Source of the DNA: an uncultured Chloroflexia bacterium
GTDB lineage: Bacteria > Chloroflexota > Limnocylindria > Limnocylindrales > CSP1-4
Length of the DNA: 64,000 nucleotides
NCBI GenBank assembly: GCA_963768655.1
Contig: CAVYIM010000009.1
Location: forward strand, 64,001-128,000
Direction of reading: 5' to 3'
Below are positions 1,337 through 7,222 of the stretch, one piece after another. The notes beneath the pieces are model-generated. The model saw only the letters and a program-made list of their open reading frames with translations, ran no database searches and had not been told where the DNA came from. Position numbers and translations under genes: made by a program. Each line of letters opens with the position of its first letter. Positions within the stretch are counted from its first letter, which is position 1.

Positions 1337-3937
1337 TCAGGCGGCCTCGGCGTGCCGGCGTTCCCGACTGGGCGGATCGGCCGGCGCGACGATGGCCGGG
1401 CCTTGGCTCGCCCCGGTCCCGGCTTCGGCCCCCTCCGCATCGTCTCGATCTATCTTGAACCTGGCCGTGGAGCCCTCCAGCTCGCGGGCGATGCTCGTCA
1501 GCGCCGACGCGGCGTCGTTCACTTCCTGGGCTTGATGGGATACTTCGACGGTCGTGGCCGCCACGCGTTCGGCTGAGGCAGCGTTCTCCTCGCTGATGGC
1601 GGCCACGTTCTCGACCACTTCGAGCGCCTCGCGGATGCCGGCGGCGGCGGTCTCCGATCGTTCCGTGTTCGCCTCGACGACGGTCGAGACCTGTTCGATG
1701 GCCGTCGTGAGATCGTCCATGACGCTCGCCACCGCCTGGTTGGCATCGACCATCTCGGCGGTTTCGCGCTGCGTGGTCGCCGCAGACTGGAGCAGCTCGT
1801 CCAGCGCCTGACCCGAATGCCTGGCCAGGGACGAGCCTTCGTGGACCTTCTCCATGGCCGCGTCCATCGCCTCCGCGGCGTGCCGCGCGCTGGATTGGAC
1901 CGTGCCGATGATCGTCCCGATCTCCTTGGTCGCGGCCGCCGATTTCTCCGCCAGCTTGCGAACCTCGCTGGCGACGACGGCGAAGCCCTTGCCCTGCTCG
2001 CCCGCTCGGGCGGCCTCGATGGCGGCGTTCAGCGCCAGCAGGTTGGTCTGCGCGGCGATGTCCTCGATCGTGGCGACGATCTCGCCGATCTCCTCGGCGT
2101 GGGCGTTCGTCTGCTGGATGATCGTCGCGGACGAATCGACGGCCCGCTCGATCGACTCCATCTGCGCCAGCGTCTGGCGGAGCAATTCTGATCCGCGCTG
2201 AGCCGTGACCACAGCCTGGGTCGTCGCGGCCACGACGGCCTCCGAGCTGGAGGCGGCGACCTCCACGGCATGGGCTATGTGGGCGGCCGTCTGTGACAGG
2301 CTGCCAACGGATCGCGCCTGGTCCCGGGCACCCGCGGCGATCGCGTCGACCAATTCCGCGATACGGTGAAGGCTGTTGCTTGCGCGTGTCACCGCGGCGG
2401 CTTCGTTGTTGGCCGCCTCTGCCATCTGCGAGACGGTGTGGGCGATGTCGCTTGTCGCCGTCCCGGATGACTCCGCCGTGGTCGCCAGATCGGTGCTCAC
2501 CACCATCAGCCGCTGGGCCCGATGGCTGAGCGTATACATGAGCCCGCGCAGGCTGGACAATTCAGAGTTGAACGTCGCGACCGGCACGCCCGCGGCGACC
2601 GCCCTGTTGATCGACGCGACGAGCCCGGTGTCGTTTACCGGCGTTGCCAGCGCGTCGTAGCCCTGGTGCGCCAGCGACTCGATGGCCGGGCCACGGATCG
2701 ACAGATCCCACGCCAGGTTCGGCTCGGGGACGATCCACTCCACGTCCGCGTTGTATGGTCGAAGCTCTTCGGCGGCGGCCAGGGCACCATCGCGGACGGG
2801 ATACCAGAACGAGCTGTCCTCGATCCCGACGATGCCTATGCGCAGCCTGCGGGGCGAGGTCTTCATCGGTCTGGGCCGCCGCTCGATCGTCGCCTGCGAC
2901 TGGATCACGCCCTTGCCCGCCCGCCAGAACTGGCCCCAGTTCTCTGCTGTGACCAGGTCCATCGCGGTCAGCAGGCGTGGATCCTGCGGCTGCCAGCCTG
3001 CGGCCAGGTGGTTGAACAGATGTATCGCCACGTCATGGCCCTGGGCGTAGGGATCCTGGCCGACCGTCGCCGAGATGACGCCCTTAGATACGTAGGGCAT
3101 CACTTCGTCGGTCAGGTCGTGACAGATGAGCGTGACGCGGCCCGCCAGGCCGGCGTTGACCAACGTCAGCGCGGCGCCGGTGGCCGGGCCGGTGCAGTAG
3201 ATGCCCGCCAGGCGCGGGTACTTCCGCAAGAGCGAAGCTGGGACCTCGGCCTGGTCCGTCGACTCCAGGACTTCCACGATCTCGATACCCGGATACCTCT
3301 CGCGCAGCATCGACCCGAAGCCTCTGCGGCGCACTTCGAGGCCGGTGTTGCGCAGGTTGCCCGACAGGACGATCACCTGGCCGCGGCCGCCGAGCGTCCG
3401 GCCCATCAGGTCGCCGCAGGTCTGACCCTGCAGGTACCCGTCGGGACCGACATAGAAGAGTCGCCGGCAGGCTTCGTCGGTAACGCTGTTGAGTTGCTCG
3501 GCGCCTTCGGCGAGCCTGGCCGCGATCTCGTTGACGACCTCGCCGAGGTGGCTGACCTCCGCTGCGCAGGTGGAGTCCAATGCGATGGCGCGCGTACGAG
3601 GCTCGAGCCGGCTGGTCAGATCGCCCTGCGCGACGGAGCTGAGCATGTCCGCAAAGGCCGCGGCATCCTCCGAGGCGAGCGCTTCCGTGGCGATCGTGAT
3701 GCGGGCCAGCGGCCGCGACATGGTCAGTCGCACGATCCCGAGCGTCACGGCCCAACCTGCCGCCATCCCGAGGCCCAGGATCGCCGGCGCGCTTCCGGCT
3801 ACCGACGCCCCGGCCAGGGTGGCTATGACCCAGACAGAGATGCACAGCAGGCCAAGCCCCAGGCCGGCGTACGTGACCCCTCGAAGCAGCAACGGGCCGG
3901 CGGCAGAGACCGTCGAGCGCAGGAATCTCGGTGTCAT
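1337..3937 (-). CDS. Methyl-accepting chemotaxis protein: 2 TM + HAMP + circularly permuted sugar-binding PBP-I domain + MCP signalling domain
   Basis: [38 protein letters not shown] hairpin-tip motif; two N-terminal hydrophobic helices; RbsB-like segments in between. Start placed at ATG 3937 after GGCGGAG. Confidence 0.9.
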
Positions 3938-4267
3938 CTTTACTCCGCCTCGAACCTCAAGCTGGCGACGCTCCTTGACCGCACGATCTGCTTCGTGAGA
4001 CTCCCCGGGACGCCATGCGCAGGGCCGTTTCATCGCTGGGAGAGGAGCCCTTTCCAGTTGTCGGTCGCCACTCGGCTCCCCTTCAGCGGGAAACTGGGCG
4101 GGCTCACCACCGACAAGCGACCGCCAGTGGACGGGGAGCAGCCCATAGATGACCCCCATCGCGCGGAACTGGCCCTGTCGCTGCTATCACCTGGCGCTCC
4201 CGCATCGCGGGCACGAGACGAGCGGTCCAACAAGACGGGTGGCTCGACTGGGACCGGCGTCGTGCGA

Positions 4268-7222
4268 TCAGGCTCCGGAGTCCACGTCCCCGGCGACTGT
4301 CGGGGCATCCAGCGTCTCACGAACTGCCTCGAGCAGGGCGGCCACGCTGAACGGCTTTCCGAGCAATCTGGCTCCCTCGGGGAAGGCAGCTCCACCGGCC
4401 TCACCGGAAATATGGCCCGAGATGAAGAGGACCCGCGGAGGCCGAGAGGAGGCCTCCAGTTCGGCCGCAAGGGCCACGCCGGACTCCCCCGGCATCGTAA
4501 CGTCGGACAGGAGGAGGTCTATGTCGCCCGCGTGTTCCGACCACAGCTCACGCGCTTCGGCGGCGCTCGCAGCGCTGAGAACGCGGTAGCCCCGGCCAGC
4601 GAGGACTCGCTCAGTCAGCTTACGGATGGCCTGCTCATCCTCCACGAGAAGGACGGTCTCGGTGCCGTGGATGGGCGGCTCGCCTCCCGCCGCGCTCGCT
4701 TCCTGGGGACTTCCGCAGGCGGGGAACACGAGCGAGAAGCGCGTGCCGTGACCGGGCTCGGAGTCGACCAGGATGTCGCCAGACGCGTTGCGAACGATGC
4801 CGTAGACAATCGCCAGGCCAAGCCCTGTGCCCTTGCCGATATCCTTGGTGGTGAAGAATGGCTCGAAGATCCGATCTCGGATCTCGGGAGCGATTCCCAC
4901 GCCCGTGTCGCATACGTCCACGAAGGTCAGAGCCTGAGCCGGGACCGGCCTGGGAGTCCAACTGCTCCGCTCCAGAGTGGATGGGTTTGATGGAATCCCC
5001 TGCGCGACCGAACGCCGGCCTGTCTCGATCGTCAGGGAGCCGCCGTCCGGCATGGCGTCACGTCCGTTGACGCACAGATTCACGATCGCCTGTTCGAGCT
5101 GCGTCGGGTCGATCAGGATGTAGCCCGCCTCCGGCCGCAGAACAGTCGACAGCTGGATCGTCGGGCCGAGCAGGTGTCGCATCATCGGCACCGTCTGACT
5201 GACGCACAGATTCACGTCCACGACCCGCGCGTTCGCCCTGGCGGGCTGGCTGAAGGTGAGCAGCTGCCGCGTCAGCTCGGAGGCTCGGTCGGCAGCCCGA
5301 ACGATCTCCTCGAGGTCGGCAGCGAGTTCGACGTTGCGAGGATTGGCCGCCCTCGCCAGTTCGGCATAGCCATGAATAGCCTGAAGCAGGTTGTTGAAGT
5401 CATGTGCGATAGCTCCAGATAGCTGGCCGAGCGTCTCCATCTTCTGGGCCTGGCGGAGCTGGCTGGCGCGGAGCTGGAGTTCCTCGATGAGCAGAGCGAC
5501 CTTCAGGACGCCGCTGATCCGAACGCGCAGGGCGTCGTAGATGAACGCGTCAGTGGGCCCCATCTCGAAGACCGCGTAGCCCAACGGATCGTCCTTGAAG
5601 AAGAGCGGCTCAACGACCATGGCGTAGGTGCGGTCGGCTGGCAGCAGCCCGTCCGGTATGGAGGTCCCCTCGACCGTGGCGTCGCGCGGGTCCTCGAGCG
5701 CTGACGGGTCGAAGGCCGGATCCTGGGCGAAGACAACCCTCGCGCCGGACGGTGGAACGTCATCATCGAGCACGAGGAAGGCATTCGTCACGCCGAGTCG
5801 CGGCAGGCACTCGCGGAGCGCCTCACCGAGCGACTCGAGATCGAACGCCGCGCTCAGCGTCTCGGCGGCCTCGGACAGCGATTGCGTGCGGCGCTCCAGG
5901 ATCAGCCGATGGTGGGCCTGGGCGTCGACGGCCTCGTCGACCAGAACCCGCGCCTCCTCCAGAAGATCCTCGACCCGCAGACCCATGCTCGGGTTCGCGG
6001 CAAGGCAGGGCATCAGCTCGCGATGCAAGGCGGAGAGCGCCGGCTGCCAGTGATCTGCCGTCACGCCAGGACGCATCATCTCCTTGAGGAGCATCGTGAG
6101 CCGTTCGGCGAAGGCGCGGGGAGAATCTCGTAGTTCGGCTGCGAGGGCGTCGAACAGGCCTTCCTCCCATCCCGCCGGAAGCGCATCGGCGAGGCCGCCC
6201 ACGGCCTCCCGCATCGCCTCGAGGATCTTGGGGCGGCGGAGCCTGAGTGCGTCGTCGACGGTGAACTCGGTCTCGGTGGGAGTGAGCGGGGCCGGCTGGT
6301 TGCCAGTCGTCGAGACGCGACCTTCGTCCGAGCTACAGCCGCAGCTGCGTCGGACGACGAGTTCCGCAGGCAGGACCAGGACATCATCGACTCGCTCGCC
6401 GCGAAGGCGCCGCAAGAGGATCTCTACGGCGAGCCTGCCCTGCTGCCGGAGTGGCTGGCGGATCGTGGTCAGAGGCGGGTCACAGTAGCGGGCCTCGCCG
6501 ATGTCGTCGAACCCGATGATGGCCACGTCTCCTGGCATCTTGATGTCGCGAGCGCGCAGTGCGTCGATTGCCCCGAGCGCCATCAGGTCGTTGGCGGCCA
6601 CCATCGCGTCGAAGACGGCGCCCCGCTCATCGAGCAGGACCCGCACGGCATCGACGCCACTTTCGTAGCGGAAGTCTCCAGTCACGACGGCCAAATCGGG
6701 CGGGGAGAGTCCATAGGCGGCCAGCACATCACCGCAAGTGCCCAGGCGATCTCGCGCCTCGAGATTGGCCTCCGGACCACCCAGGAATGCGAAATGCCGG
6801 TACTGGTGGTCCTCCACCAGATGTCGAATCCCCTCTCGCAGGGCCTGCTCGCCGTCGACGAGGATGCCGGTTGTTCCCTCGACCGCGGCGGCGAGGCTGA
6901 CCATGGGCCGCGGACGGTAGTGCTCGCAATAGCGGGCGAGATCGTCCAGGCCCAGGTAGTTGACGAAGCTGCCGGCCTGGATCACGAGACCATCGATGCC
7001 CTCGGAACGAGCCAGGTCGTAGACGGCCCTATGCCGCTCGCCGAATGGCAGCGGTGCCCGGAGCAAGCACCCGTCGATGATCACGAGATTGACGCCGGAT
7101 TCGCGCGCGGCCTCCACCACGCCGCCGACGACGGCGCTCTGGTACTCGCCCGCCAACCCGTCGGCGAGGACGGCGAACGTCAGGGCACGGGTCAACGGCT
7201 CCGACGCCCTTGGAGGCATCAC
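4268..7222 (-). CDS. Hybrid sensor histidine kinase with an N-terminal LacI/PBP-I sugar-binding domain, HisKA, HATPase and receiver domain
   Basis: LacI-type motifs [30 protein letters not shown]; H-box [10 protein letters not shown]; [18 protein letters not shown]; receiver LLVEDE...[10 protein letters not shown]...KPF. Confidence 0.92.

Follow-up and report, generated by a model that had tools for sequence, protein, structure and literature searches.

A circularly permuted periplasmic-binding-protein domain within the cytoplasmic signaling helix of a chemoreceptor from an uncultured Chloroflexota bacterium

Introduction

What is known of sugar chemotaxis through binding proteins takes place mainly outside the cytoplasm, where a separate periplasmic protein docks on the receptor (PMC8050422). 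Here, we describe a methyl-accepting chemotaxis protein (MCP) gene from an uncultured Chloroflexia bacterium of the order Limnocylindrales, the product of which, P0001, carries a circularly permuted type I periplasmic binding protein (PBP) domain between its HAMP-like region and its signaling domain. The gene lies in a 64,000-nucleotide stretch of contig CAVYIM010000009.1 (positions 64,001 to 128,000; assembly GCA_963768655.1), referred to below as the window, and nucleotide positions are those of the window unless another sequence is named.

Canonical binding proteins signal by docking on an outside receptor domain, as in the pairs XylFII-LytS and GBP/RBP-Trg (PMC8050422). The available part of that review of binding proteins in signaling lists separate outside proteins and does not contain the string "permut" (PMC8050422). 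The canonical CUT2 binders (2H3H and 3C6Q of T. maritima, GanP, AraP, XylFII, and CbpD) share the fold and family (PF13407) of the P0001 domain; unlike it, they have the canonical order and are secreted as separate polypeptides.

A natural permutant of this fold is known from Treponema pallidum. TpMglB-2 (Tp0684), a permuted glucose-binding protein assigned to "type Ic / cluster Bc" (PDB 5JX2 and 6BGC), still binds glucose and changes its conformation (PMC4990184). As in P0001, N-terminal strands have been moved to the C terminus, but TpMglB-2 is cut before N-lobe strand 4 (order 5-4-6-1-2-3; PMC4990184) and P0001 after it, one strand later. Moreover, TpMglB-2 works outside the cytoplasm, as the free lipoprotein of an ABC importer, whereas the P0001 domain is internal and cytoplasmic. 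The identity of P0001 to TpMglB-2 is 17%, versus 43 to 53% to canonical-order relatives, which points to an independent origin of the two permutations. Another natural type I permutant, with a different cut, appears to be a solute-binding protein of Rhodopirellula baltica (PDB 5ER3): canonical residues 56 to 210 of the binding protein P0086 match 5ER3 residues 183 to 332, and 5ER3 aligns in order to residues 55 to 303 of our domain model.

Aer-type receptors are membrane anchored, have no outside sensor, and receive a cytoplasmic input through a PAS domain at a terminus, and the sensor domains of LacI/GalR proteins use the type I PBP fold in the cytoplasm for sugar sensing. P0001 resembles the Aer type in its near-loopless transmembrane hairpin, HAMP-like region, MCP domain, and apparent sensing on the cytoplasmic side, and differs from it in that the sensor is inserted within the helix between HAMP and the methylation region. 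LacI-type sensors, including that of the neighboring gene at 4268-7222 (PF13377 plus LacI-family models), are of canonical order and fused end to end, whereas the P0001 sensor is permuted and inserted. In engineered switches, a permuted binding protein is inserted to couple a ligand to an output, e.g., cpGltI in RFP (PMC6335823); the P0001 module differs from these in being natural and conserved, in lying in register in a coiled coil, apparently with both junctions on one lobe, and in serving several natural outputs.

Results

Inverted order of the binding-protein domain

The first-pass annotation, made from the letters of this DNA, had read RbsB-like segments in swapped order between the HAMP and MCP domains at positions 2558 to 3466. 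On the minus strand, this interval is a stop-free frame and holds all the motifs noted in it, in the order given there. A Pfam scan of the whole open reading frame returned MCPsignal and two stretches of Peripla_BP_4, i.e., the two partial inverted matches that had been proposed as a check: scanned separately, the first part of the domain matched PF13407 positions 93 to 246 (E = 1.1e-27) and the second matched positions 9 to 89 (E = 1e-8). The comparison with PDB sequences was also inverted, query residues 2 to 152 corresponding to 2H3H 97 to 253 and residues 208 to 301 to 2H3H 2 to 90. Against a profile hidden Markov model (HMM) built from 16 canonical-order units, the domain in its native order gave two pieces (HMM 149-341, 178 bits, and HMM 50-148, 94 bits), whereas the halves swapped in silico gave a single full-length match (HMM 50-340, 288.6 bits). 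The presence of a circularly permuted type I PBP (RbsB/MglB-like) domain in P0001 is confirmed. The gene and the parts of the domain are as follows.

1337 to 3937, minus strand: methyl-accepting chemotaxis protein gene P0001, 866 amino acids (start from ATG plus GGAG and the starts of homologs)
2918 to 3466, minus strand: the two-thirds of the PBP fold that are C-terminal in canonical proteins, residues 158-340 (Pfam, PDB, conservation, and model)
2852 to 2917, minus strand: linker from the old C terminus to the old N terminus, residues 341-362 (alignment with P0086 and P0100)
2561 to 2851, minus strand: the third of the PBP fold that is N-terminal in canonical proteins, with N-lobe strands 1-4, residues 363-459 (Pfam, PDB, conservation, and model)

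In full, P0001 consists of two transmembrane helices, the HAMP-like region, the permuted domain, and the MCP signaling domain. Translation likely begins at the ATG at 3937, which a GGAG (3943-3946) precedes by 5 nt; the ATG at 4159, which would give 940 amino acids, was dismissed because homologs begin at the equivalent of 3937.

Residues 158-340 comprise N-lobe strand 5, the first hinge (D166), the whole C-lobe, and N-lobe strand 6, and contain R203, H273, D274, and Q294; the N-terminal third contains F377, W378, and N457. The 22-residue linker resembles the N-terminal extension of the nearest canonical PBPs and has G343, R353, and P357 conserved. In type I PBPs, the N-lobe sheet is made of strands 1 to 5 and a late strand 6, the xVGxD strand being the last before the first hinge (PMC4990184). 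P0001 shows neither the canonical N-lobe order 2-1-3-4-5-6, strands 1-4 being last in its chain, nor the type Ic order 5-4-6-1-2-3, as the chain enters at strand 5 and the PVATFN strand 4 (residues 453-456) comes last. The order derived from the model is 4-3-5-6-1-2, with the cut after strand 4, i.e., in the loop between the PVxxFN and xVGxD strands, where the annotation had put the new termini.

Predicted fold of the domain

The 303-residue domain was modeled with AlphaFold2 from a 20-row alignment at a pLDDT of 93.3 and a pTM of 0.89, all five models exceeding 90; residues 1-532 of P0001, modeled from 118 rows, gave a pLDDT of 83.8. Together with the swap match and the superpositions, the models describe a bilobed alpha/beta fold in which no strand of either lobe is missing. 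The domain model superposed on TpMglB-2 (6BGC) with both halves together (Z of 21.3, 265 residues, root mean square deviation [rmsd] of 3.3, model residues 1-291), the match ending at residue 291 of 303, before strand 4; the longer model superposed over 274 residues (rmsd of 3.5). Canonical sugar-binding proteins superposed on the first 170 to 200 model residues only, because the aligner follows chain order. The predictions thus support the folding of the two halves into one bilobed domain.

The halves might instead pair in trans, domain-swapped across the receptor dimer, so that each site would bridge both chains. Chemoreceptors are dimers, a point in favor of such pairing. Engineered ribose-binding proteins are able to refold into dimers with swapped domains (PMC6335823). 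We nevertheless regard it as highly unlikely, given that a single chain was modeled as a complete domain with high confidence and that the linker can be aligned to the N-terminal extension found in single-chain relatives.

In-register insertion at a shared motif

The domain is joined to the receptor at two junctions.

3461 to 3493, minus strand: N-side junction, residues 149-159, with the first copy of the F/L-N motif followed by a retained PBP loop
2546 to 2572, minus strand: C-side junction, residues 456-464, FNSELSSLR (conservation; helix in the model from 463)

The N-side motif was LN, FN, or YN in 157 and the C-side motif FN, YN, or LN in 167 of the 177 homologs (out of 219) in which both could be parsed. 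At the C side, strand 4 ends in a second F-N motif, after which the signaling helix starts; the family pattern is (F/Y)NxEPxS(L/F)R, with E459, P460, and R464 conserved in 95, 89, and 86%, respectively, of 106 distant homologs, and P0001 itself has L460 in place of the conserved proline. In the model, helices span residues 50-103 and 126-152, the incoming helix ends at 152 and passes by a loop into strand 5 (162-164), and strand 4 is followed by the signaling helix from 463.

To locate the insertion in the host receptor, the parts flanking the insert were aligned to a profile of receptors lacking it. The genome holds three other chemoreceptors without an insert, and a search with the signaling region gave more. 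An earlier register test against a mixed receptor set failed, and a subtype set was then used, consisting of the 11 of 75 uninserted receptors that have an extended HAMP-like region. With 34 of the 177 homologs not anchorable, 143 were measurable, and in 141 of these N150 and N457 fell on one and the same position of the host (offset 0); the insert was 308 to 319 residues long in nearly all measurable homologs. The computation shows that the insertion is in register within the helix that connects the HAMP-like region with the methylation helix. In the nearest canonical PBPs, N-lobe strands 4 and 5 are joined by a loop containing FNSE; the matching place in the host helix is occupied by an aromatic residue. 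According to Pfam labels, many uninserted relatives have a four-helix-bundle outside sensor; the permuted family is without one.

Membrane topology and cytoplasmic location

The remainder of the receptor was delimited as follows.

3812 to 3868, minus strand: transmembrane helix 1, residues 24-42 (Kyte-Doolittle; helix in the model)
3731 to 3787, minus strand: transmembrane helix 2, residues 51-69 (Kyte-Doolittle)
3479 to 3721, minus strand: extended HAMP-like region, residues 73-153 (Pfam HAMP, E = 8e-4; alignment with 11 uninserted receptors)
1457 to 2557, minus strand: MCP signaling hairpin, residues 461-827 (Pfam MCPsignal)

The two transmembrane helices had been noted for their almost absent extracellular loop, and this loop indeed turned out to have only 8 residues, leaving no outside sensor domain. 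Topology was then predicted for 187 homologs that start with Met and carry both the domain and the MCP tip. Two hydrophobic helices preceded the domain in 122 of them, one in 60 (at the threshold used), none in 4, and six in 1; with two helices, the loop had a median length of 9 and a maximum of 22 residues. No hydrophobic segment was found between the PBP domain and the signaling tip in any of the 187. Since the MCP signaling tip is cytoplasmic and no membrane helix separates the two, the permuted domain is cytoplasmic, as the annotation had it.

That the segments are leftovers of two tandem PBPs which do not fold together, or that the domain is extracellular, is hardly tenable. Relatives with tandem-duplicated PBP domains do exist (P0086, P0100, P0259, and P0124), but the two pieces of the P0001 domain are exactly complementary on the canonical profile (HMM 145-341 and 50-150), the insert has a nearly fixed length, and the model superposes in one piece on a solved permutant; an outside location is contradicted by the uninterrupted path from domain to tip.

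The HAMP-like region of P0001 is divergent (PF00672, 20.1 bits versus a cut-off of 25) and belongs to a subtype common to uninserted Chloroflexota receptors. The MCP domain is well matched (PF00015, 138 bits versus a cut-off of 34.6; E = 3.8e-40), its hairpin having the tip near E647, about 26 heptads per arm, and one strict methylation-consensus site at residues 779-788. Among 128 members with a parsed tip motif, the signaling arms after the module had at least two lengths, about 190 and about 162 to 165 residues from N457 to the tip, four heptads apart.

Family, output domains, and distribution

A word-based search scored 7,999 candidates and yielded 273 proteins at E ≤ 0.001. The canonical profile was matched by 270 of these, in 227 cases as a clean inverted pair. 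Another 23 matched in one piece, 13 of them being canonical proteins and 10 being fragments or partial matches; the remaining 20 consisted of 4 tandem forms and 16 inverted proteins whose ends were ragged. Homologs with the same permutation are thus numerous. The best 150 clusters at 50% identity comprised 103 permuted MCPs, 22 permuted proteins without an MCP tip, 8 with the first part only, 13 canonical proteins, 2 tandem forms, and 2 fragments.

We also scanned 24 hand-picked unusual members for output domains. The module precedes a GGDEF cyclase (P0128), a HisKA-HATPase-REC-AraC hybrid (P0164), and a SpoIIE phosphatase (P0172) and occurs with two AraC regulators (P0183 and P0195) and in a MASE11-PAS-MCP protein (P0173); the GGDEF, HisKA-HATPase-REC-AraC, SpoIIE, and AraC outputs come after the same junction. 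At nine genome loci, the module stands before a domain with a GGEEF motif, as read by motif.

In GTDB genomes, 399 stretches were confirmed, which may include canonical relatives. The best 79 of them, all from metagenome-assembled genomes, belong by title to Chloroflexota (43), Bacteroidota or Ignavibacteria (23), Kryptoniota (2), KSB1 (1), and Fibrobacteres (1), the other 9 carrying no lineage in the title, so that the module occurs in at least five named lineages. Among the matches listed (120 of 273), the closest named homologs were from Candidatus Limnocylindrales, and a cluster look-up of 10 distant members found no cultured organism. A search of the ESM Atlas returned no usable match, a result that speaks for neither absence nor novelty. 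The 36 other genomes of the same genus, which are kin, partly incomplete, and not independent, had the domain together with CheA in 20 cases, the domain only in 2, CheA only in 3, and neither in 11, while 24 genomes of another family had neither. Two permuted receptor copies are split over frames (L034:5539-8129 and G424:C5:207538-208453), which reflects either frameshifts or sequencing errors.

Conserved cleft residues and the candidate ligand

Conservation was determined in 119 near and 106 distant homologs (percentages given as near/distant). The residues R203 (100/98%), D274 (100/94%), Q294 (99/79%), F377 (100/75%), W378 (100/72%), N457 (97/82%), and hinge D166 (99/92%) are conserved, and H273 (93/90%) stands where canonical relatives have an aromatic residue (F in 79%). 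Cleft residues from both halves are thus kept across members at 30 to 50% identity. The sugar contacts of EcMglB include R158, D236, N256, F16, and N91 (PMC4990184), and the conserved cleft residues of P0001 appear to match them. The best sequence matches are canonical CUT2 sugar-binding proteins (E = 5e-28 for 2QVC; 2e-47 with a profile), and the nearest solved relatives bind, according to structure titles, glucose, xylose, galactose, or arabinose. We consider it probable that the permuted domain senses a monosaccharide in the cytoplasm.

Several observations weigh against this assignment or limit it. The mapping to EcMglB contacts was made by motif and strand position, without superposition. 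Specificity positions 196-202 and 249-253 vary, as does Q294, which D or E replaces in 12% of the distant members, so that no single sugar can be named and different clades may bind different ligands. The genome encodes a second permuted receptor (G000:C4:566618-569242, plus strand; L089), 65% identical to P0001. Its gene is followed by those of an aldo-keto reductase and, in convergent orientation, of a xylulokinase-like FGGY kinase; 15 of 81 loci are arranged in this way. These neighbors (xylulokinase in 15 and aldo-keto reductase in 17 of the 81 loci) characterize the locus type of the paralog, and neither was found in the stretch examined around P0001. The xylulokinase-bearing loci hint at a pentose, but the hint is weak, because they come mostly from related Chloroflexota; in addition, the xylB gene is convergent.

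The variable specificity loops and the histidine at position 273 would also be expected if the same in-line sensing served another ligand, such as a sugar derivative, polyol, nucleoside, or AI-2-like molecule, possibly depending on the clade; by their titles, type I PBPs among the structural matches bind AI-2, myo-inositol, and methylthioribose. With monosaccharide binders at the top of both the sequence and the structure matches, and a conserved core that seems to fit the sugar-contact pattern, we find this rather unlikely. A domain that folds but senses no small molecule, acting as a spacer or docking site while the membrane hairpin, or a partner such as a transporter, supplies the input, is unlikely: cleft residues are conserved in both halves, and the module is reused with several unrelated outputs. 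The transmembrane hairpin and HAMP-like helices are indeed kept, and the near clade conserves G57, G61, P76, G105, and L107, but across the wider family the membrane region is uneven, as the homologs with one predicted helix or none illustrate.

Origin of the permutation

With FastTree, all 62 permuted rows fell on one side of 18 canonical units (support of 0.98), and a branch with an SH-aLRT of 100 lay between the permuted domains and 15 canonical PBP rows. A single origin of the permuted domains is therefore likely. IQ-TREE, in contrast to FastTree, places P0268, a canonical-order, long-branch LacI-type repressor, among the permuted domains; a cytoplasmic regulator may thus have been the donor. 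The helix-turn-helix of P0268 was read by eye. A search for a canonical parent in 401 genomes of the phylum (E ≤ 1e-40, up to 3 candidates per genome scored) returned only permuted receptors, from 4 genomes of this genus.

The simplest origin would be a crossover at the motif shared by binding protein and host helix, the donor being a PBP gene present as a tandem or circular copy. The tandem-duplicated P0086 and P0100 align collinearly across the permuted domain and linker (40% over 372 columns). As direct ancestors, tandem PBPs were dismissed: repeats that are 94%, 100%, and 100% identical must be recent. They would demonstrate only that such a junction geometry arises easily.

The four tandem proteins, P0086, P0100, P0259, and P0124, are whole-domain duplications with repeats 94 to 100% identical, and some, notably those with identical repeats, may be assembly artifacts. 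A hydrophobic segment is present at the N terminus of three of them; P0124 is a fragment. In P0086 and P0100, cysteines occur in the N-terminal extension and near the C terminus of each unit and could join the termini.

Genome context

The genome encodes CheA, CheW, CheR, CheB, CheX, a CheY-like receiver, MotA, and flagellin, with a flagellar and chemotaxis cluster on contig C4, at the edge of which lies the paralog, about 6.5 kb from motA. Flagellar and chemotaxis loci have been noted in freshwater members of a related lineage (PMC13212565). Two CUT2-type sugar importer loci are present. An aldose 1-epimerase gene (PF01263; G000:C4:588409-589599, plus strand; L090) lies within the flagellar cluster, flanked by the flhA region and by hook-associated and flagellin genes (the flanks except flagellin were named by eye).

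Directly upstream of P0001, at 4268-7222 on the minus strand, is a gene for a 984-amino-acid hybrid histidine kinase with a canonical LacI-type sensor (PF13377), HisKA, HATPase, and a receiver, i.e., a second cytoplasmic sensor of sugar type. This kinase and the downstream SDR are not conserved neighbors, each being found at 2 of 79 other loci, with one close kinase match: a 65%-identical relative of the kinase adjoins a permuted receptor at L016 only.

Discussion

The first-pass annotation had proposed that ligand-driven closure acts directly on the signaling helix. The position of the cut in the strand 4/strand 5 loop held, but a direct lever is less likely: in the model, both junctions lie on the same lobe, the N-lobe, and the helix coming from the membrane is interrupted. 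The lobes could therefore close as rigid bodies and leave the spacing of the termini as it is. Coupling at the level of the dimer or of a local loop is more likely.

A working mechanism can be outlined on this basis. A free cytoplasmic monosaccharide of the glucose, xylose, arabinose, or galactose class would bind between the lobes and close them. With the junctions on the N-lobe and the cleft residue N457 only six residues before the signaling helix, the signal would most likely pass through an ordering of the strand-4/NxEP loop that carries N457 and through a reorientation and repacking of the two N-lobes in the receptor dimer; LacI-type repressors signal through such a reorientation of paired N-lobes. 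The changed packing of the coiled coil would then alter CheA activity, the membrane hairpin would mainly anchor the receptor in the array, and the cell would steer by sugar that it has already imported.

Taken as a whole, we lean somewhat toward a mobile cytoplasmic sugar-sensing module that arose by natural permutation and a zero-offset crossover at a two-residue motif and that gates MCPs, kinases, cyclases, SpoIIE phosphatases, and AraC regulators through one junction. Targeted literature searches, covering mostly titles and abstract openings and subscription journals thinly, gave no description of a permuted PBP in a chemoreceptor. The permuted domain is a conserved and apparently undescribed type of chemoreceptor sensor, and its module is common to other signaling proteins.

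For protein evolution, the family is an unusually clean natural case of a permutation that enabled a domain insertion, and its crossover point can still be read. Engineers could draw on its junction sequences, which already function with several types of output. If the proposed reading is true, the module would be a natural counterpart of the engineered permuted-PBP switches and a portable cassette for in-line sensing, and it would tie sugar taxis directly to metabolism. In the permuted receptors, the binding protein is located in the cytoplasm, within the signaling helix itself, an arrangement that would probably let these bacteria steer by the sugar they have taken up. With the domain present in 20 of the 23 CheA-bearing genomes of the genus and in several other uncultured lineages, it may be a main sensor of poorly studied motile bacteria.

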